A stretch of 64,000 nt of DNA, from the IMG/VR virus record IMGVR_UViG_3300033148_002693, positions 1 to 64,000 of that record. The stretch is one strand, 5' to 3'. This DNA comes from a virus. Shown here in pieces: positions 21,496 through 32,529 of this stretch. The position numbers and the translations under genes are program-made. The notes below the pieces were generated by a model, which was given only the letters and a program-made list of their open reading frames with translations, ran no database searches and was not told where the DNA came from. The stretch's first letter is position 1. Every line of letters begins with the position of its first letter.

Positions 21496-22352
21496 TGAAA
21501 CTGGGGTGGCAGGTCGGGCAATGGCCCGCTAAAAGCGAGACTTGGATACGGTTGGAAGTTGAAACCCTTAAAGCTATGGGGCATGAAGTGAAGGTGTCGG
21601 CGTTCAACCATAAGCGCGATTTGTCGCAATGTGATTTCGTGATATGTCACTTTGCAAACATCGCTGGATTTGCCGACATTCACAGAACTCCATTTTTACT
21701 GGTTCCTCATGCGTATGACATTTTCCCCTCCAATGGCAAGTATCTGAGGTTATCTGTAAATCGAGACAAGAATCTTGTCGCGATTGGATGTATAAGTACA
21801 TATCACAGAGATAAGTATCTCAAATGGGGCATCCCGAAGGAGTTGTTGATTGATTATCCGTGCGCCGTTGATGTTGATTTGTTCAGCAGGAAAGATAAGC
21901 CCCTGGGAGACTTGGTGGTTCATGGTGGAAGGAATGTTCCGAAGAAGGGGTTCCCATTGGCGATGAAGGCATGGCCCGACATTACGTTGTTCGGAGATCA
22001 TCCCTTGTCGGTTGGATGGCTCGCCAGGGAGAAGCTGAGAGATTTGTATTTGAAAGCATGGTGTTACATGGGGTCGTTTGTGGTCGATAGGAAGACGGGG
22101 GATCAAGATGGGTTGCCCATAGCACTACTAGAGGCCCTTGCAATCGGGTTAAGGGTCGTGACTACAGAGGTGGCCGGCATTTCTGATCTCAAGAAGGTAG
22201 TTACATTTGCCAATCCTACCATAGAAGATTTGCGCGATGCTGTAGAGTCAGAACCGATGGAAGTGAACGAGAAGGGCATTGAGTACGTGAGAAAGAGACA
22301 TGCGCCAGATATAGTTGCGCGAAATATTCTTGCTGCGGCAGAAAGAGTTTGA
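21492..22352 (+). CDS. Glycosyltransferase, GT4/GT-B
   Basis: SETWI..E, GR.VPKKG, DGLPIALLEALAIG..VVTT..AGI. Confidence 0.85.
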   Translation: MMKLGWQVGQWPAKSETWIRLEVETLKAMGHEVKVSAFNHKRDLSQCDFVICHFANIAGFADIHRTPFLLVPHAYDIFPSNGKYLRLSVNRDKNLVAIGCISTYHRDKYLKWGIPKELLIDYPCAVDVDLFSRKDKPLGDLVVHGGRNVPKKGFPLAMKAWPDITLFGDHPLSVGWLAREKLRDLYLKAWCYMGSFVVDRKTGDQDGLPIALLEALAIGLRVVTTEVAGISDLKKVVTFANPTIEDLRDAVESEPMEVNEKGIEYVRKRHAPDIVARNILAAAERV

Positions 22353-22353
22353 G

Positions 22354-23088
22354 ATGGATTTGAAAGGAAAACTTTTAAGGATTGAGTATGTACCATTGAG
22401 TCAGGTCATTCTTTGGGAGAGGAATCCAAAGGAGCATGACATTGGCTCTATTGTGCAAAGCATCAAGCAGCATGGATTTAGGGATGCTCCTATTTACGAT
22501 GCTACGTTGAATGATGGCATCGGTGGGATTGTAGCAGGCAACGGGCGTTCAATCGCCGTGCAAATGATGAAGGATAGCGGAGAGGACGCCCCTCTGGGTA
22601 TTGGGGTTGATTCTGATGGTGAATGGTATGTTCCCGTTCAGTTTGGGATAGATGCTGGGAGTCAAGCAATGGCAGAGGCGTTCGCCATTGACCATAACTC
22701 CCTTGTTATGTCGGGCGGCGATTTCTCGGCCTTGGATGTGTCCCGATTGTACGACGAGCGGAAATATCTGGACCTACTGAAGGACCTGGTGGAACAGGAC
22801 AGGATGCCGGTGGCGATAAATGGAGATGATCTGGATTTATTGCTAACCTTGAACGAAGAGAGCAACCCTCCATCACTAGATGACTTGACGAATGAATACG
22901 GCGATCCACAAGAGCGTGATTTCTGGCCGATTATTAGGGTTCAAGTTTCGCCCGAAACAAATGAACTGTATGAGTCGTTGATTGCTCAGGTAGAGGGTGA
23001 TGAAGCAAGTCGATTCGATAAACTGATGAGGGCCGTGGATGTATCTATATTTAGTAACAATGAGGCCAACTCCAAAACAATGGAATGA
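22354..23088 (+). CDS. ParB/Srx-like N-terminal domain protein
   Basis: IEYVPL....WERNPK.H....I..SI..HGF...IVAGNGR...A....DHN. Confidence 0.8.
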   Translation: MDLKGKLLRIEYVPLSQVILWERNPKEHDIGSIVQSIKQHGFRDAPIYDATLNDGIGGIVAGNGRSIAVQMMKDSGEDAPLGIGVDSDGEWYVPVQFGIDAGSQAMAEAFAIDHNSLVMSGGDFSALDVSRLYDERKYLDLLKDLVEQDRMPVAINGDDLDLLLTLNEESNPPSLDDLTNEYGDPQERDFWPIIRVQVSPETNELYESLIAQVEGDEASRFDKLMRAVDVSIFSNNEANSKTME

Positions 23089-23272
23089 ATTGGGATTAAT
23101 TCATGAAACTATATCTAGTTCCAAGCAATGTTATACGGGGGGGGTATTTGTTGATGAGGATAGAGGATTAATAGCGGTTCATAATATGAATTTATACTTG
23201 GCTACATGACCTCCCAAAAAACAGATAGAGCAAGTTACCGGACAGCGGCTTGCTCAGCAGGTTGGTGAAAGC

Positions 23273-24334
23273 ATGAAACTACACCTAGCCGAACACGACC
23301 TTCAACATCAAGCCTGGGCTAAACATGGCGTTGAAAGGCGAAACCTAAGACTCAAGGTCTTGCTATCATATTGGTACTATAAGAATGCCGATCTTGATGA
23401 TTTATTTGTAAGGTATTTCACGAAACCATACCCAGAGGTGTTTGCTGATAGCGGCGCTTTCTCCGCTATGACACAGAACGGCGTAGTCAATTTGAAAGAG
23501 TACGCAGACTGGATCAAACGTTACCAACATCTCTTCAATGCGTATGCAAACCTTGATGTTATCAAAGACGCCGAAGCAACTTGGACGAATCAGCAACGTC
23601 TTGAGAAGATGGGATTAAACCCGCTCCCTGTGTTTCACATTTTAGAAGATTGGAAGTGGCTTGAGCATTATCTTGAACGCTATCAGTATATTTGCCTCGG
23701 TGTGGCTGGTATGCAATCTCGACGTGCGGCTGTTATGCGTTGGCTTACAAGATGTTTCAAGATGGCAAATGGAAGGGCGGTGTATCACGGATTCGGGCTT
23801 ACTGGTTGGGATGTTATGAAATCGTTCCCCTGGTACAGCGTTGATTCGTCAAGTTGGGGCAAGGGTTTTCGTTGGGGCAAAGTCCCTGTGTTTGATGAAA
23901 AACTTGGAAAGTTTCACCAACCCGGATTGGGCAATAGAAAGGATTGGCTTAAGGTAGCTGATATTGTTCGTTCGTTTGGGTTTGATCCTTTGGATTTTGC
24001 AGACCGTGAACGCAATGATAGAATGAAGATATGCGCCATCTCAGCACTGTCTTATATGATAGCAGAACAATGGCTACGAAAGAGGCACGGTGAGATTAGG
24101 ATTCCCAAACGCAATGATGTATCGGATTCAAAGATATGTTTGGTAACAGCTGGTGGTGATGGGAGCAATATGGGTTTGAGAGCGTTGAGCCGTTATGGTG
24201 TTTGCGTGCATCTAAGCGATATAAGCAATGGGGTCAATTTCAGAGATGCGGACAAAGGCATAAAACTACATCTAGCCGATTCAACTACCGGCGATAACTT
24301 CGACATAGGAAGGGTGGGTAAATACCTTGAGTAG
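23273..24334 (+). CDS. DpdA/tRNA-guanine transglycosylase-like protein
   Basis: FADSGAFS, YANLDVI, PVFH, YICLG, HGFG, SVDSSSW motifs of phage TGT-like proteins; adjacent to queD/queE/folE. Confidence 0.75.
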   Translation: MKLHLAEHDLQHQAWAKHGVERRNLRLKVLLSYWYYKNADLDDLFVRYFTKPYPEVFADSGAFSAMTQNGVVNLKEYADWIKRYQHLFNAYANLDVIKDAEATWTNQQRLEKMGLNPLPVFHILEDWKWLEHYLERYQYICLGVAGMQSRRAAVMRWLTRCFKMANGRAVYHGFGLTGWDVMKSFPWYSVDSSSWGKGFRWGKVPVFDEKLGKFHQPGLGNRKDWLKVADIVRSFGFDPLDFADRERNDRMKICAISALSYMIAEQWLRKRHGEIRIPKRNDVSDSKICLVTAGGDGSNMGLRALSRYGVCVHLSDISNGVNFRDADKGIKLHLADSTTGDNFDIGRVGKYLE

Positions 24335-25142
24335 AAAGATAGTATATAAGGTCAAACCTGGAATGGATCGTCGGGAAATAGAAGCCACGACTTATCAGAT
24401 GCGGAATTTCTATCGACAATTGGGAGATGGGTTTTTCTCGGTTCTTGATACCATGAACTACATCCAGCATCAGCAGATTGTCAGATGGTGCAAGAAGGGA
24501 AATCACGTTTTGGATGTATGCTGCGGGCGTGGGTTGTTACTACCAATGATGAGATACGAACGAAAGGACATTGGTAGTTATACGGGTGTTGATATTAGGC
24601 CCAAGAATGCCATATGGCGTTTCAAAAGGGTCACGGATGGAAAACCCATCAAGGAGGGTTATTATCCTTTCCCGACGACTTTTATTGAAAGTAATGTGGG
24701 TGAAATGGCTGATAAGCTGTTACCCAAACGTTTCGACGTGATTGTATATACTTCATCTATTGAGCACATGCAGAAGGAAACAGGACAAGCAAGTTTGGTG
24801 GAATGCCGGAAGGTAAGCAAACCAGGAACGATACTGATTTTAACTTGCCCCAATACGCCAGAAGATCAAGATGGGTACAATACTCAGTACGCTGCTCATG
24901 TATATGAATGGAAGCGCAGCGAGTTATTAGATGGATTGAAAGAGGCTGGTTTCCAGGTCATTACAGAGTGGGGAATACTGATAGACCGAAAGACGTTAGA
25001 GTCGGAAGGGGAAAGATTGGGGCTGAAGCCGCTCATAGACCGGATAAGCAAATTTGTTCCATCTGAGTGGTTGTTGCCGGTGTTTGCTCCAATGTTCCCA
25101 CATCAGGCTAAAGAGATTGCTTTTCTCGCAAAGGCGGTATAA
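24327..25142 (+). CDS. Class I SAM-dependent methyltransferase
   Basis: VLDVCCGRG, YTGVDI, FDVIV...IEH, ILTCPN. Confidence 0.85.
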   Translation: MSRKIVYKVKPGMDRREIEATTYQMRNFYRQLGDGFFSVLDTMNYIQHQQIVRWCKKGNHVLDVCCGRGLLLPMMRYERKDIGSYTGVDIRPKNAIWRFKRVTDGKPIKEGYYPFPTTFIESNVGEMADKLLPKRFDVIVYTSSIEHMQKETGQASLVECRKVSKPGTILILTCPNTPEDQDGYNTQYAAHVYEWKRSELLDGLKEAGFQVITEWGILIDRKTLESEGERLGLKPLIDRISKFVPSEWLLPVFAPMFPHQAKEIAFLAKAV

Positions 25143-25498
25143 TGTATAGGATAACTAAACGATTTGAATTCTCTGCCAGTCATGAATTGAAGGGACTTGA
25201 TTCCGGCCATCCTTGCTCACGTTTGCACGGGCACAACTATATAGTTGAAATCGAGTTAACATCTGAGGTACTAGATGAAACTGGTTTCGTTTTGGACTAT
25301 GGAAAGCTGAGAGACTTTGGTCGATTCATAGATGAGATGTTTGATCATAGACATCTCAATGATGTAATGGATTATCAATCATCGGCAGAGAATATAGCGA
25401 AATTGCTATTTGATTGGGCGAAGGAGCGTTGGCCGCAGGTAAGTGCGGTTCGGGTAAGCGAGACACCAAAGACATGGGCTGAATATGTACAAAGTTAA
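25142..25498 (+). CDS. queD: 6-carboxytetrahydropterin synthase
   Basis: FSASH.L...C.RLHGHNY...FDHRHLN...SAENIA...ETPKTWA. Confidence 0.95.
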   Translation: MYRITKRFEFSASHELKGLDSGHPCSRLHGHNYIVEIELTSEVLDETGFVLDYGKLRDFGRFIDEMFDHRHLNDVMDYQSSAENIAKLLFDWAKERWPQVSAVRVSETPKTWAEYVQS

Positions 25499-26123
25499 TG
25501 CTATTTACAGGGCAGTGCAAGGAGAAGGTTGCTTGACAGGGACGGCGATGGTATTGCTGCGATTGCAGGGTTGTAACCTTCGCTGTTCATGGTGTGACAC
25601 GAAAGAGACGTGGGTAACTCAAGATGAATTCTGTGTCGGTCTTGAGCGGATTTCTGAGCAGAAGCGTTTTTGGGCGTTTGCTTCGGCAAGTGAAATCAAT
25701 AGCTTCATTCGTAAGAATTTTACTGGCCCACGTTGGGTATTGATAACTGGCGGGGAGCCAGCATTACAAGAGTTACGATCTTTGGTTGTTGCTTTGCACG
25801 ATGATGGCTATAAGGTCGCACTTGAAACCAATGGAACGGTCAATATTGATGCTCCGTTTGATTGGATTTGTTTGTCGCCAAAACCAGATTCAGATATTAT
25901 GCTCGATGTTATTGAAATCGCAGATGAAATTAAGATGGTTGTGAAAGATAAAAGTGACATTGAGCGACTAGACGATCTTCTTGATGGAATCGAGTATGAC
26001 GGCGAGATATGCTTACAACCGCAAAGTTTAGACAAAGGGGCAACTGAACTATGTATCAAGACTGTGGCAAAGAGGGGTTGGAGACTAAGCGTGCAGGTTC
26101 ACAAATTGCTAAATCTTCCGTAG
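25485..26123 (+). CDS. queE: 7-carboxy-7-deazaguanine synthase (radical SAM)
   Basis: QGEG...LRLQGCNLRCSWCDT, ITGGEP, ETNGT, SPK, LSVQVHK. Confidence 0.95.
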   Translation: MYKVNAIYRAVQGEGCLTGTAMVLLRLQGCNLRCSWCDTKETWVTQDEFCVGLERISEQKRFWAFASASEINSFIRKNFTGPRWVLITGGEPALQELRSLVVALHDDGYKVALETNGTVNIDAPFDWICLSPKPDSDIMLDVIEIADEIKMVVKDKSDIERLDDLLDGIEYDGEICLQPQSLDKGATELCIKTVAKRGWRLSVQVHKLLNLP

Positions 26124-26689
26124 ACTACGAAAGGCTTTTAGCTATTGGTTATGATTTGCTCGTCGCAATCGGGGAAGACCCGAACAGGGAAGGGATAAGA
26201 GAGACCCCGCGCAGATGGGCGTCATGGTGGAGAGAGTTTATTGAATATGATGCTGGCAATATAGATGTAACCTTTGAGTCAGTGACAACAGACCAACTTG
26301 TTGTTGTTTCGGGATTAAGGGTTTGGTCATTGTGTGAGCACCACCTTTTACCTTTTTGGTCTGATATAACTGTGGGCTACCTCGCGGAGGACAGGGTAAT
26401 GGGGTTGTCAAAGATCGCAAGGATTACTACCAAAGTTGCTCATAGACTTCAATTACAAGAAAGATTAGTTCACCAGATTGCCGATGAAATTCAAGCGATT
26501 ATTGGGAGCGATAAGAGCGTCGCTGTGTTAGGACAGGGTGAACATTTATGCATGGCGATGCGTGGCGTGAAGATGAGGGGGTTGATGACCACTTCGGTCA
26601 TGAGAGGCTTCTTTATGGAGAAGCCTGAGTTAAGACAAGAATTCCTACAGTTAGCGATAGGAGAAAGGACGAGCCATTATGCCATTTAG
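26051..26689 (+). CDS. folE: GTP cyclohydrolase I
   Basis: GEDPNREG..ETPRR, SLCEHHLLPF, GLSK.AR, RLQLQERL, HLCM.MRG; true start may be a few codons downstream. Confidence 0.95.
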   Translation: MYQDCGKEGLETKRAGSQIAKSSVDYERLLAIGYDLLVAIGEDPNREGIRETPRRWASWWREFIEYDAGNIDVTFESVTTDQLVVVSGLRVWSLCEHHLLPFWSDITVGYLAEDRVMGLSKIARITTKVAHRLQLQERLVHQIADEIQAIIGSDKSVAVLGQGEHLCMAMRGVKMRGLMTTSVMRGFFMEKPELRQEFLQLAIGERTSHYAI

Positions 26690-27326
26690 AACAATGACAC
26701 CAGAGTTTTTCAATGATGTAGCAAGATCACGTATGGGATGGTCAAGGGTTGTAAACATTCTCGTTAAGGACAAGGACGAGGAGACCAAAAGACAAGAGGT
26801 CGTTATCCTCAGCATGTTAGAGGATTGGTCGCAATTGAGAGTACTTGATATGGGTTGCGGGGTTGGACGGCTGACCCCCTGGTTCAACGAGATTGCGGAT
26901 GCTGAGGGTGTTGACTGGTCAAGTGAGATGCTTGCGGTTGCTCGAACAAACAATCCTGGAATGGAATTTCATCACGGAGCTTTGACTGACCCTATACTTC
27001 CAAACCAGTTTCCTGACAAATTCGACTTGACGTTCCAGTGGTGCGTGTTCCTCCACATTACGAATAAAGAGGAATGGCAGCAGGCCATCAAAAACATGCG
27101 TGACCTATCGAGAAAGTACATCCTGTACTGCGACAAGGTGAACAGTAATGCCGTGGTCGATTATGTCAGGGTGTATACACCAGATGAGATAATCGACGAA
27201 GTGGAGAGCACGGGCGAGTTTGCGTTGATGAAGCGGGTAGAGCATTGGTGTCCGCCGGAGGATATGTTCGAACTGTTCTTGTTTGAGCGATTTAAGGAAT
27301 GTACTGGTTGTGGGTGTTGTAAATGA
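26679..27326 (+). CDS. Class I SAM-dependent methyltransferase
   Basis: VLDMGCGVGR, GVDWS..ML; ends in CTGCGCCK. Confidence 0.85.
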   Translation: MPFRTMTPEFFNDVARSRMGWSRVVNILVKDKDEETKRQEVVILSMLEDWSQLRVLDMGCGVGRLTPWFNEIADAEGVDWSSEMLAVARTNNPGMEFHHGALTDPILPNQFPDKFDLTFQWCVFLHITNKEEWQQAIKNMRDLSRKYILYCDKVNSNAVVDYVRVYTPDEIIDEVESTGEFALMKRVEHWCPPEDMFELFLFERFKECTGCGCCK

Positions 27327-28039
27327 AGTTATGTATCTGTGGGTATGAAAGGTCTGGAACGACTATTATAGGCTTGATGATGGCTAAGGCTACTGGAATG
27401 AGCCTGCTGAATGATCCGCCGGAGTCATATCGAACTAATCTTGACATACTGCACAAGAACGGCTTGAACAAGAAATTTGCAAAGCAGGTGAGAACGCATG
27501 AAATCGTGAAAGTTCCTGGCTTCGCCGCGGTGCTGCCGCAGTTGAAATCTCAGTTCGGGGAGTTTCAGACGTTGTATATCATGAGGGACCCCAGGGATGC
27601 GATCTGTTCTGCGATTGAGAGGACAGAAAAAGGGCCGAAGGTGGCCCACATTAACCTGTTCTGGACACCTCCGCTGAGCGGGGTCCCTGACGAAGATATG
27701 GTGTTGGGGATGGCGGGGCGGTGGCGAGAATATGCGATGCTTGCGAAGTCTTACGAGAAACAAAACAATGGCAAGGTGTATTGGTTGAAGTATGAGTTCT
27801 GGTGGCAAGACAAAATTGGCGCGCTCAGGCTGGTTACTGATGCTTTGGGGCTTCCGTTCAGCAAAGAGGGGCTGAGGCAAATGTGTGATGTTCAGGTCAA
27901 CAAGAATCTGAACAGGGGCATTCCCAGGAATATCGCAGGGCCAGGAAGATGGAAAAGAGATTTGAGCGAGAGGGATGCCCGCAGGGTTGAGGCGATTTGT
28001 AATGTCGGTGGGTTGATGGAGGAATTTGGATATCTATGA
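27323..28039 (+). CDS. Sulfotransferase-family protein
   Basis: ICGYERSGTT 5'-phosphosulfate loop, IMRDPRD 3'-phosphate motif, KYE, GRWK..L. Confidence 0.8.
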   Translation: MKLCICGYERSGTTIIGLMMAKATGMSLLNDPPESYRTNLDILHKNGLNKKFAKQVRTHEIVKVPGFAAVLPQLKSQFGEFQTLYIMRDPRDAICSAIERTEKGPKVAHINLFWTPPLSGVPDEDMVLGMAGRWREYAMLAKSYEKQNNGKVYWLKYEFWWQDKIGALRLVTDALGLPFSKEGLRQMCDVQVNKNLNRGIPRNIAGPGRWKRDLSERDARRVEAICNVGGLMEEFGYL

Positions 28040-28542
28040 TACAGGCGGAGTTGGATTTCATCAAGGCAATAGCGGCCAAACATTATACTGGCGGGATTGC
28101 TTTAGATGTAGGTTCAAGCGGGTTGATGTTTCGCAACCGTCCAAAGTTTCCGTACAGTTTGGCCGAATTGTTCGATGAGTATGTCACGTTCGACCGCAAG
28201 GCGGAAGCGGGCGTCGAGATCGTTGGGGATGCAGAGTTGCTATCCTTGCTGGTAGGGCCGAGAACCATATCGTTTGTCATCTGCACAAGTTTGCTCGAAC
28301 ACGTCAAGCGGCCATGGATGGTTGCGTATGAATGTGCAAGGGTATTGAAACCTGGCGGGATAGGGATATTCTCTGCACCCTGGAAGTATATGGATCATCC
28401 AGACCCCATTGATTGTTGGAGGATAAGCCCAGATGGGATGCGGGGATTGGTAGAAGGCTGGTTCGATGAGTTGGTGTGCAAGAAGGTTGCGGGCGAAAAT
28501 ATAACGGTGACGCTATACGCCGGAAGGAGAAATAAGAAATGA
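28036..28542 (+). CDS. Class I methyltransferase (Methyltransf_11-like)
   Basis: LDVGS, GDA, LLEHV..PW....E..RVLKPGG, H..P.D.WR. Confidence 0.8.
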   Translation: MIQAELDFIKAIAAKHYTGGIALDVGSSGLMFRNRPKFPYSLAELFDEYVTFDRKAEAGVEIVGDAELLSLLVGPRTISFVICTSLLEHVKRPWMVAYECARVLKPGGIGIFSAPWKYMDHPDPIDCWRISPDGMRGLVEGWFDELVCKKVAGENITVTLYAGRRNKK

Positions 28543-29321
28543 AGTTCAAAGAGTTCGTGGCTGCGGATTGGGATGCCAGATGCAGACGCTTGAGGGGATA
28601 TGGGCCAGTGATGAACACGGCTTATCCTCAGATGGAGATGGTAGCAGAGACGCACAGGCAGAAGGAATACATCGTCACGCTCCCGCTCCCGCTAAACAGG
28701 TTCGAGATGGAGTATGATGTTGAGGGCATACCAATTGGGCCAAAGCAGTTGTCTGAATCTGACGCTACGCTTCTGGATGTGGGCTGTGGGGTTGGAAGGC
28801 TGTTGCACATCTTGAATGATTTTGTTGTGAGGGCGGATGGGCTTGATTGGAGCCGTGTTATGCTCGAAGCTGCGAACAAGAATTTCCCAGAAATGATCCT
28901 GGTGAACGGCGACGCGAGGGACCCTGGCATATTCAGCAGGGGGCAGTATGATATTGCGTTCCAGTGGAACGTGCTCAGCCATATTACAGATCCAGGGGAT
29001 TGGGAACGCGCCGTCAAGAACATGAAGCAATGGGCCAAGCGGTACGTGGTTCACGCGGACTACCTGGACATTGGGCCCGAGTCTCCCTCCACGAGGCTTT
29101 ACGGCACCAAGGAGTTGAAAAGTCTCATGCGTGGGTGGAAGATTCTCTGGGAGGACACGTACACGCTGAAGATTGGTAATGCCGATTTCCAGACGATGGA
29201 GGTTCTTGTGTTCGCTTCGACGGTTGAGATCAAGCGACTGAAAGAGCAGGAGGCCCCAGAGGAAGTCGAGGTCAATGCTTTGCCTGCTGAGGTAATGCAC
29301 GAGGAGGCTTTGGTTGGCTGA
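28539..29321 (+). CDS. Class I SAM-dependent methyltransferase (paralog of 26679..27326)
   Basis: LLDVGCGVGR, GLDWS..ML, FQW.V..HIT. Confidence 0.85.
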   Translation: MKFKEFVAADWDARCRRLRGYGPVMNTAYPQMEMVAETHRQKEYIVTLPLPLNRFEMEYDVEGIPIGPKQLSESDATLLDVGCGVGRLLHILNDFVVRADGLDWSRVMLEAANKNFPEMILVNGDARDPGIFSRGQYDIAFQWNVLSHITDPGDWERAVKNMKQWAKRYVVHADYLDIGPESPSTRLYGTKELKSLMRGWKILWEDTYTLKIGNADFQTMEVLVFASTVEIKRLKEQEAPEEVEVNALPAEVMHEEALVG

Positions 29322-30810: not shown

Positions 30811-32529
30811 GTGAATGGGGTTATTATGTATGAGATAATCAATGCCGACGTTTTGGATTGGGCGGCTAAATACGACGGGCCGAAGTTTCACGCGATGCTG
30901 TGTGATCCTCCATATCATCTGACAGATGTTCACACTGGCGGAAAGGCAATACCTGGCAAGTTTGGACAACACACAGACGAGCAGAAGCGGGAGTGTAGCG
31001 AGGCCAGTGCCAACGGCGGCTTTATGGGCAAGAAGTGGGACGGCGGCGACATATCGTTCCAGCCTGAGACCTGGGCAGCACTGGCAGAGCATCTACACGA
31101 CGGCGCGTTCGGCATGGTGTTCGCCGGAAGCCGGACTTGGCATAGAGTAGCTTGCGCCATTGAGGATGCGGGATTGCTGATACATCCGAGCGTGTTCTGC
31201 TGGCTGAATGGTCAGGGCTTCCCAAAGGCGACGCGGATTGACACGCAGATTGACAAGGCGGCTGGGGCGGAGCGTGAGGTAGTGGGGAAATGGAAACCCA
31301 CAGGAACGGCGCGACCTAACAAGGGAAGCAAGGGGCACTCTGCCAAAAAGACAACGGCGGCTGATTCGACATACAATCCAGATGATTCGGCAATCATTGA
31401 CCTCACCGCCCCCGCTACCCCCCTCGCTGCCGCCTGGGAGGGTCACCGTTACGGTCTCCAGGCACTTAAGCCGGCGGTCGAGCCTATCATCGTATTCCAG
31501 AAACCGTATGAGGACAAGCCCGTCGAGTGCATCGTGAGGACTGGGGCTGGTGCGTTGAACATTGACGGCGGAAGGATAAGGACGAAAGACAAGCTGCAAA
31601 CGTTTAATGGCTCCTTTTCTTTTTCCGGTTGTGGTGGTGCCAATGAACGAGGCAAGACAATAATATTTCGTGATGCTGGCAAGGGCCGCTGGCCTGCAAA
31701 CTTTGCGCTTGTACACAACCCGGGATGTCGGCACGTTGGTATGCAGAGGGTGAAGGGCGAGAAGCATAGTGGAAAGCCTGGCACTGGTAAAAAGTCAATG
31801 TTCGGAATGGAAATGACTGGTGAAACGGACTGTTACGCCGACGGCCTCGAAACAGTGGACGCCTGGGAATGTGTTGAGGATTGTCCAGTTCGCAGGCTTG
31901 GAGAGCAGGGCGGGGAACGGCCTACTGGGGGGGGCAGAGTGCGTAAGGCAACAAATGAGACGGCCGAGCATCCATGCGGTTGGAAAAGTGGACCGCGTAC
32001 GGAAGCTAACTGGGTAGCATCCACCGGTACCGCTGCCCGTTTCTACTATCAGGCCGACTGGCAGTATGAGATAGCAGAGCACATCGACGACGCGGACCCC
32101 GTGTTCTATTGCGCGAAGGCCAGCCGGAAGGAACGCGACGCGGGGTGCGACGAATTGCCATTGCAAAAAAGAGCGACACAGGGTCGTGATGTAGTCAGAA
32201 CCATTGATAGAAAAGATGGTAAGGGAACAGTACCAGTTAATGCTCAAATACGGCCTGCTAGGAATAATCATCCAACTATAAAACCATTGAAACTCCTCCG
32301 CTGGCTTGCCACACTGCTCCTGCCGCCGGACATTTACGCGCCGCGACGAATCGTAGTTCCATTTTGCGGCGTAAGCTCTGAGATTATTGGCGCTGGCCTC
32401 GCGGGATGGGATGAGATAACCGGCATCGAGCAAGAGGAAGAATACGTTAACATTGGGCGGGCGCGTGCCGCGTATTGGCTAGAACGTGACATACAACTAG
32501 AGTTGAAACTGGAGACAGAGGGAGCATAA
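30811..32529 (+). CDS. Large phage DNA amino-methyltransferase with insertions
   Basis: CDPPY, FMGK.WD, GQGFPK, LKPA.EPI, GRWPAN, NNHPTIKP, VVPFCG. Confidence 0.85.
   Translation: MNGVIMYEIINADVLDWAAKYDGPKFHAMLCDPPYHLTDVHTGGKAIPGKFGQHTDEQKRECSEASANGGFMGKKWDGGDISFQPETWAALAEHLHDGAFGMVFAGSRTWHRVACAIEDAGLLIHPSVFCWLNGQGFPKATRIDTQIDKAAGAEREVVGKWKPTGTARPNKGSKGHSAKKTTAADSTYNPDDSAIIDLTAPATPLAAAWEGHRYGLQALKPAVEPIIVFQKPYEDKPVECIVRTGAGALNIDGGRIRTKDKLQTFNGSFSFSGCGGANERGKTIIFRDAGKGRWPANFALVHNPGCRHVGMQRVKGEKHSGKPGTGKKSMFGMEMTGETDCYADGLETVDAWECVEDCPVRRLGEQGGERPTGGGRVRKATNETAEHPCGWKSGPRTEANWVASTGTAARFYYQADWQYEIAEHIDDADPVFYCAKASRKERDAGCDELPLQKRATQGRDVVRTIDRKDGKGTVPVNAQIRPARNNHPTIKPLKLLRWLATLLLPPDIYAPRRIVVPFCGVSSEIIGAGLAGWDEITGIEQEEEYVNIGRARAAYWLERDIQLELKLETEGA

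Follow-up and report, generated by a model that had tools for sequence, protein, structure and literature searches.

Repeat-module tails and poly-G tracts around a predicted phage DpdA: a candidate contingency locus

How is a gene to be read when pieces of its own beginning recur on both sides of it, in more than one frame, and are interrupted by a homopolymer and a stop codon? The question is raised by dpdA, a predicted DNA-modification gene in a 64,000-nucleotide stretch of viral DNA (here called the window), which comprises positions 1-64,000 of the IMG/VR record IMGVR_UViG_3300033148_002693, a metagenome assembly. The dpdA open reading frame (ORF), at 23273-24334, encodes 353 residues and, like the other parts of its locus (22315-26689), lies on the plus strand. 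An earlier note, made from the sequence alone, had proposed that motif copies flanking the gene are cassettes, any of which could supply the first strand and loop of the enzyme's barrel, and that this reservoir of specificity modules is switched by slippage, recombination, or readthrough. Comparison with homologues supports part of this proposal and replaces the rest. The best explanation, which we regard as probable, is that the locus encodes a phage DpdA with tails of repeat modules; that poly-G tracts at the module junctions form a contingency switch at the level of the family; and that the tract in the window has been cut off from the enzyme by a TGA codon.

A predicted transglycosylase with module tails

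The dpdA ORF matches the family profiles phrog_887 ("queuine tRNA-ribosyltransferase"; E 1.6e-48 over residues 17-265) and phrog_7068 (E 2.4e-36), and has no match in Pfam, NCBIfam, or PDB sequences. An AlphaFold2 model built on 120 homologues contains a confident TIM-barrel core, spanning approximately residues 20-285, in which the predicted local distance difference test (pLDDT) score is mostly above 85. Foldseek matches this model, with probabilities of 0.98-1.0, to the archaeosine TGT, the bacterial TGT, and the DNA preQ0 insertase DpdA (structures 1iq8, 7a4x, and 7ui4, the last being DpdA). Asp residues at positions 59, 95, and 191 are invariant in the 120 homologues. Because the family profile and the TGT-type fold are joined by linkage to 7-deazaguanine precursor genes of the preQ0 pathway and by the same synteny in phage Typha, the ORF is predicted to encode a phage DpdA, a DNA transglycosylase of the TGT fold; the earlier label of "DpdA/TGT-like" was thus well chosen.

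The homologue search returned 2372 proteins, the best of which are 55-63% identical and 350-480 residues long. The closest cultured relatives are the DpdA proteins of mycobacteriophages (36-39% identity), with Typha-like phages nearest. Relatives at the nucleotide level were not found among 50,697 phage records, and other assemblies of the same phage were not found in viral, genome, and metagenome collections, where the nearest relatives are about 63% identical.

Seven motif copies surround the core, each where the earlier note had placed it. MYLYLVT (23039) and MNLYLAT (23186) lie upstream in the dpdA frame, and MKLYLVP (23103) lies between them in the +1 frame; MKLHLAE (23273) starts the ORF; and KICLVT (24131), VCVHLSD (24200), and IKLHLAD (24260) lie in the carboxyl-terminal tail. 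Scanned in all six frames, the window matches the motif pattern 18 times, and five of these matches share a single frame within 1.3 kb. Moreover, the amino-terminal motif and the last carboxyl-terminal motif fall in the two copies of a direct repeat (23268-23292 and 24255-24279) that brackets the core and is somewhat longer than first described, with 22 of 25 nucleotides identical. No shuffle of the 1.5-kb region (0 of 200) reached 22, the maximum being 20. The motif copies, the direct repeat, and the G8 run and single TGA described below all exceed chance.

The Leu codons in both direct-repeat copies are all CTA, the rarest Leu codon of the window (7.5%). A hand count that included all seven motif copies put CTA at 8 of 12 Leu codons (a script, which omitted two copies, counted 6 of 9). 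Flanking copies so similar and so rich in CTA suggest recent copying or gene conversion. The nucleotides of the amino-terminal motif are also nearly the same in the window and in two homologous loci, L003 and L006, although the proteins are 55-60% identical. Gene conversion might account for both the CTA richness and this near identity, as might a constraint on translation initiation.

What the motifs are becomes clearer from the family as a whole. (Homologous loci and homologous proteins carry L- and P-numbers, respectively, and motif counts refer to the best 120 of the 2372 homologues.) The pattern x-[LIVA..]-[HY]-L-[ASV..]-[DET..] occurs 121 times in the amino-terminal flank and 297 times in the carboxyl-terminal flank, and only three times in the core. 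Individual homologues contain zero to four amino-terminal and zero to six carboxyl-terminal copies, the latter spaced by 20-22 residues, and more than 100 homologues carry motif modules, in varying number, at both termini. The core peptide of the module consists of G or M, then [LIV]-[KR]-L-[HY]-L-[AVS]-[DET]. Each motif forms the centre of a repeat module 20-22 residues long. The 15-25 residues that follow each motif, once thought to be unrelated to one another, belong to modules common to the family; and the number and order of these truly homologous modules vary around a conserved core, as had been anticipated.

Two other accounts of the motif were considered and rejected. A motif acting at the DNA level is at odds with its coding: homologues use all six Leu codons, and it is therefore the peptide that is conserved. 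A signal common to other phage proteins would be expected in other genes, whereas in 80 loci no motif cluster was found outside the dpdA frame, nor was one found elsewhere in the window. Typha DpdA, at 36% identity, retains two carboxyl-terminal copies. A more distant DpdA clade (L033 and L034, about 45% identity) has three amino-terminal copies of the form G-[PL]-[HN]-[VL]-[YH]-L-[VA] and no poly-G tract, so the motif appears to be older than the tracts.

The enzyme of the window therefore has a simple predicted layout: an amino-terminal module (residues 1-25), the barrel, and a disordered carboxyl-terminal tail (residues 286-353) containing three motifs. In two AlphaFold2 runs, one for the window DpdA and the other for homologue P0036, the tails form only low-confidence coil and one terminal helix. 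The pLDDT score is below 50 for residues 1-18 and the whole carboxyl-terminal tail, and about 29 for motif residues 1-7; only the last 10-15 residues are helical (residues 345-352 in the window). Because the motif alternates hydrophobic and polar residues in the manner of an amphipathic edge strand, we infer that the modules serve for multivalent docking, by beta-strand addition.

Poly-G tracts, leader, and stop codon

Homologous loci share a second feature. In 29 of 77 distinct loci, a tract of at least seven G residues (G7-G10) lies within 360 nucleotides upstream of the core anchor. The density of such tracts in this interval is 1.08 per kb compared with 0.07 per kb elsewhere in the loci, a 15-fold enrichment, and C runs are almost absent. 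The 5' tract encodes Gly-Gly at a module junction (..[WR]-G-G / V..). A 3' tract (G7-G11) is present about 1 kb downstream in approximately 19 loci, between the last motif (..H-S-L-D-R-G-G / V..) and the conserved terminal helix. The G8 run of the window (23137-23144) likewise stands at a module junction (..R-G-G / V..) and is one of only three runs of at least eight G residues in the 64 kb; the tracts in homologous loci make it a candidate hypermutable site. The homopolymer is not a by-product of the amino-acid sequence, because Gly-Gly elsewhere in the cores is encoded by GGGGGG in only 5 of 118 cases (GGG accounts for 24% of Gly codons).

Tract length differs between close relatives. L006 and L090 (both G7) and L151 (G9) are identical over 260 nucleotides upstream of the core except for the tract, and with G9 the enzyme of L151 gains a short module that bears the motif. 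Differences are found also in pairs that are 91% identical: L008 (G8) and L094 (G6); and L012 (G7) and L015 (G8). The last pair shares the end of the upstream ParB-like gene and the sequence after the tract, with unrelated modules between them (L012:4826-4956 and L015:2840-2970). Modules have thus been exchanged in evolution between the ParB-like end and the tract, in keeping with earlier expectation, and the tract marks the recombination junction. Locus L002 (approximately 1527-1680, with its 3' tract at 1575) differs in another way from the 98.9%-identical L085: it has a scaffold gap (NN), with 25 nucleotides, or about one motif unit, missing at the tract. This gap may represent an assembly problem or heterogeneity of the reads.

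What would a change in tract length do? Adding or removing one G in silico yields an ATG-started ORF through the tract into the core in at least two of the three phases for 20 of 31 loci. The amino terminus that results is of one of three kinds: a long module, a short one, or only a minimal start, M-G-G-V. Among the natural amino termini of the 120 homologues, 24 belong to extensions that span the junction, 11 begin with M-(x)-G-G-V, and 38 coincide with the innermost module. The 3' module, present in about 57 homologues, is fused to the helix in about 34, ends right after the tract in about 15, and continues in an alternative frame in about seven. All three reading phases occur among natural homologues, each with a different terminus.

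Tracts that are conserved, that vary in length, and that yield a different terminus in each phase have the signature of a contingency locus. Its elements here are a homopolymer of at least 7 nucleotides in the window; length polymorphism, seen among homologues rather than within the phage of the window; and phase products that differ. Of the switching routes suggested in the earlier note, slippage at the G run finds strong support in this comparison. Recombination between the two 22/25-nucleotide repeats is not: no evidence for it was found, and it would delete the core. The tracts also explain why gene callers give inconsistent amino and carboxyl termini for these DpdA proteins.

Each of the upstream frames in the window can be traced to relatives. 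With the tract at G8, the ATG at 23039 opens a leader ORF of 56 residues (23039-23209), consisting of MYLYLVT, the G tract, MNLYLAT, and the TGA. Its first 19 residues match the amino terminus of P0040, and what follows the tract corresponds to the second half of a module read in frame in L002, L006, and L012. The second start (MKLYLVP..., 23103-23136), in the +1 frame, would join at G9 or G6 and is homologous to the first half of the L002/L012 module. One extra G would indeed connect it to the main frame, as had been predicted. MKLYLVP and the next seven residues, joined to the 15 residues encoded in the dpdA frame after the G run, correspond to one uninterrupted module in L002 and L012. The three-frame view reveals a third start, ATG TTA TAC, directly before the tract (23128-23136), which would join at G7 or G10; comparable M-(x)-G-G-V starts are present in many loci. 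On this alignment the upstream cassettes are not spare barrel strands; they are parts of an amino-terminal extension whose counterparts are read in frame in relatives.

The remaining obstacle is the in-frame TGA (23207-23209), which, as noticed at the outset, is the only stop between the ATG at 23039 and the ORF; all three tract phases end there. Relatives have a Trp codon at this position. MNLYLAT followed by TGA CCT aligns with ..L-Y-L-A-[ST]-W-P.. in five loci (L001, L084, L086, L093, and L101), all of which have TGG CC. The linker that follows (23210-23272, 21 codons) is homologous to coding sequence in relatives, and its first eight residues are identical to those of L101. Because the three nucleotide differences from L101 are synonymous, the linker must have been coding until recently, or is so still. 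The TGA may be a recent nonsense mutation, from TGG to TGA, or a leaky stop.

Recoding of TGA throughout the genome was considered and rejected: TGA is the commonest stop of the phage, ending 21 of 47 long ORFs, and no suppressor tRNA is encoded in the window, whose only tRNA is for Tyr. Since every phase ends at the TGA, DpdA is predicted to be translated from the ATG at 23273, four bases upstream of which is the sequence GGTGA. The predicted protein would contain one amino-terminal and three carboxyl-terminal modules. In silico, the tract phases of the window alter only the leader peptide, with lengths of 27-56 residues.

The proposed switch and its rivals

How might such tracts work? In the proposed mechanism, dpdA would be co-transcribed with the ParB-like gene and with the genes for QueD, QueE, and FolE, and DpdA would exchange guanine in DNA for a 7-deazaguanine base. 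The poly-G tract would encode the Gly-Gly of the module junction, downstream of three overlapping frames, each with its own ATG; the first ATG would lie within the 3' end of the ParB-like gene. A change in tract length by strand slippage would choose which amino terminus, if any, is joined to the enzyme, and the 3' tract would decide whether the terminal helix is attached. In the window, G8 places the ATG at 23039 in frame, and one more G, making G9, would be needed for the homologous MKLYLVP start.

The modules would presumably dock to the ParB-like ATPase, to another DpdA subunit, or to the replisome. Bacterial DpdA requires DpdB, a ParB-fold ATPase (PMC10164549), which makes the ParB-like gene a natural candidate partner for the tails. 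Switching might then adjust how much modification takes place, or in what pattern, and so hedge the phage's bets between hosts that restrict unmodified DNA and hosts that restrict modified DNA. In its most complete form, the proposal is for an evolved three-phase switch with paired tracts that changes the docking tails (at the amino terminus a long module, a short one, or none; at the carboxyl terminus a helix or no helix), the coupling of DpdA to the ParB-like ATPase or replisome, and the amount or pattern of 7-deazaguanine, and so keeps within any one phage lineage subpopulations suited to both kinds of host. This complete form is offered tentatively, as a possibility more apt to fail than to hold.

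Several points weigh against a functional switch. The 3' tract is not present in the window. The 5' tract of the window, which the TGA cuts off from DpdA, may be a relic without effect on the enzyme; it could even be a homopolymer miscall in a metagenome assembly. The family's poly-G tracts could be kept partly for encoding the conserved Gly-Gly, and slippage could occur at the level of RNA or ribosome instead of DNA. Finally, the tail modules have no match in Pfam, NCBIfam, PDB sequences, or the ESM Atlas.

Some of these points are parts of rival explanations. Neutral decay, which we consider unlikely but worth serious attention, would view the amino-terminal extension as dispensable, inactivated by a frameshift in the G run and by a nonsense mutation, and the tracts of the family as mere mutational hot spots that encode Gly-Gly. 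Two independent disruptions in the window, the G8 and the TGA, are what decay would leave, and it would account also for the 38 of 120 homologues that begin at the innermost module without an extension and for loci such as L005 that have no tract. It accounts less well for the persistence of a homopolymer at two particular junctions across lineages that share only 55-60% identity, when any synonymous GGN codon would serve and GGGGGG is scarce at Gly-Gly elsewhere (the 5 of 118 cases above). Nor does decay predict that starts and motif-bearing modules should survive upstream of the tract in two or three overlapping frames, or that the linker after the TGA should differ from L101 by synonymous changes only. 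The same linker, conserved as coding sequence, would fit a second rival, in which recoding is not heritable: polymerase or ribosome slips on the G run, and a weak TGA-C is partly read as Trp, so that a fixed genotype makes a minor fraction of DpdA with the full three-module extension. UGA-C is a weak terminator in E. coli, and the TGA of the window, at the position of the relatives' Trp, is followed by C. This explanation nevertheless seems improbable. Differences in tract length at the DNA level between near-identical genomes suffice to account for the phases; neither a slippery heptamer nor a stimulatory structure was seen, although no search aimed at them was made; and the count of TGA stops (21 of 47) and the lone Tyr tRNA of the window argue against ready suppression.

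Error and structure supply the other two rivals. If the true sequence were G9, perhaps with TGG in place of TGA, the locus would encode one fixed long ORF. The record is a metagenome assembly, homopolymers are error-prone, and the scaffold gap of L002 falls exactly at its 3' tract. Such an artefact is quite improbable, however, because the TGA is a substitution rather than a homopolymer error; because out-of-frame states recur in many independent assemblies, with all three phases seen; because L006 and L151 differ by two G residues, not one; and because independent records of the same phage have identical tract lengths (L001, L082, and L164; L012, L013, and L056). The idea from which the analysis began, that each cassette replaces strand 1 of the TIM barrel plus its loop and thereby re-aims the enzyme, has the least claim of all and can hardly be right. 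The amino and carboxyl termini of a TIM barrel do lie on the same face, and the modules do vary in number and identity. But both fold models contradict it: MKLHLAE lies outside the barrel, in the low-confidence tail, and strand 1 is formed by residues 28-32. Moreover, the core match to phrog_887 begins at residue 17, and proteins P0053 and P0114 begin five residues before strand 1, without the whole amino-terminal motif module. For the related claim that the modules set DNA specificity, no evidence was found.

Known systems and genomic setting

A family-level contingency switch that acts on the tails of DpdA would have several partial precedents. Bacterial restriction-modification methyltransferases ("phasevarions") are phase-variable through simple repeats in the 5' coding region. 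The parallel is that such repeats switch whether, or in which form, a DNA-modifying enzyme is made. The difference is that phasevarion genes belong to cells and have regulatory effects that are epigenetic, whereas here the tails of a viral guanine transglycosylase would be switched.

Phage examples are closer in some respects. Hypermutable poly-G is known from Fletchervirus phages of Campylobacter (Sorensen et al. 2021, Cell Rep 35:109214, as cited in 10.1101/2025.10.21.683753): tracts of 7-11 G residues lie within phage genes, and changes in their length shift the frame to create phenotypic subpopulations. Those tracts are in genes for receptor-binding proteins and act as on/off switches. The dpdA tracts, as far as sequence can tell, flank a DNA-modification enzyme, swap terminal modules, and are preceded by starts in up to three frames. 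Phage contingency loci also include the DNA-glucosylation gene agt of T2, in which reversible frameshifts trade sensitivity to one defence for sensitivity to another (Gomez, Barrick and Waters 2025, bioRxiv 10.1101/2025.10.21.683753); that preprint cites in addition poly-G in a methylase gene of BPP-1. As is proposed for dpdA, a homopolymer in agt allows reversible frameshifts of a phage DNA-modification gene, and it hedges between defences that attack modified DNA and those that attack unmodified DNA. The agt homopolymers, though, are A runs in the gene body that knock out the enzyme, whereas the poly-G tracts of dpdA lie at terminal module junctions and the core keeps its own start.

DpdA itself has been studied in several settings. 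In the dpd cluster of Salmonella Montevideo (PMC10164549), as here, a TGT-fold DNA transglycosylase is encoded beside a ParB-fold protein, and 7ui4 is among the fold matches; sequence-level matches to bacterial DpdA or DpdB were not found, and repeat-module tails and poly-G tracts are not described in that work. Typha has the same gene order (ParB-like gene, small ORF, dpdA, and then QueD-QueE-FolE one gene further), a ParB-like nuclease domain annotation, and the two carboxyl-terminal motifs. Gene 2 of Typha (L080:858-995), a 45-residue ORF with a hydrophobic carboxyl-terminal half, occupies the position of the leader ORF and is unrelated to it in sequence. In the mycobacteriophage Rosebush, dPreQ0 replaces 28% of G (PMC6884629). 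The poly-G clade differs from mycobacteriophage DpdA proteins in its tail module, which has no match in the 50,697 phage records; the clade is known only from metagenomes.

The level of modification is known to differ between DpdA subfamilies for reasons unknown, with the enzyme treated as fixed (PMC10516641). The DpdA and contingency-locus papers searched make no mention of repeat-module tails of DpdA or of poly-G tracts in dpdA. What would be new is thus a contingency tract that swaps the terminal modules of a hypermodification enzyme rather than turning a gene on or off. If true, this would extend phage contingency loci from on/off control of receptor binding and glucosylation to isoform switching of a hypermodification enzyme. 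Tract phase and modules would also offer a handle on what sets the level and pattern of 7-deazaguanine modification, an active field of phage research.

The window comes from a complete genome of 98.7 kb with terminal repeats, and the presence of a tape-measure gene indicates a tailed phage. Immediately upstream of the leader lies the ParB-like gene (22315-23088, 257 residues), which matches phrog_620 and phrog_723 (E 4e-10 and 4e-9). PADLOC and a PDB sequence search of the protein gave no DpdB match; on the basis of PHROGs and synteny with Typha, it is likely the DpdB counterpart. Its 3' end overlaps the first leader start (23039) in a different frame, an arrangement found in other loci as well. 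Between 23020 and 23090, and upstream of dpdA in L001, L003, L005, and L006, the first M-x-L-Y-L module of the DpdA extension shares its nucleotides, in another frame, with the conserved ParB-like carboxyl terminus (..A-V-D-[VA]-x-x-[LF]-G..). In L005 it is the stop codon of the ParB-like gene that overlaps the DpdA start motif. A scan of 22000-24600 for promoters and terminators found nothing beyond shuffled expectation.

Downstream of dpdA, the operon continues (24327-26689) with genes for a class-I methyltransferase (PF13489), QueD (PF01242), QueE (PF04055), and GTP cyclohydrolase I, or FolE (PF01227). QueC is not encoded anywhere in the complete 98.7-kb genome. For this reason the inserted base is uncertain, and the base inserted by the predicted DpdA is perhaps not preQ0. 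The 7-deazaguanine cluster (22315-29321) also includes genes for two class-I methyltransferases, along with a third ORF that resembles a methyltransferase and one that resembles a sulfotransferase.

Long G runs occur at two other places in the window. A G8 run (31927-31934), read in frame as Gly-Gly-Gly, lies within a 572-residue ORF that resembles a DNA methyltransferase (30811-32529, phrog_67). It gives the phage a second DNA-modification gene with a candidate contingency tract. A G9 run (157-165) lies within an ORF of 53 residues with a TTG start (123-284), just upstream of the ORF at 244-564.

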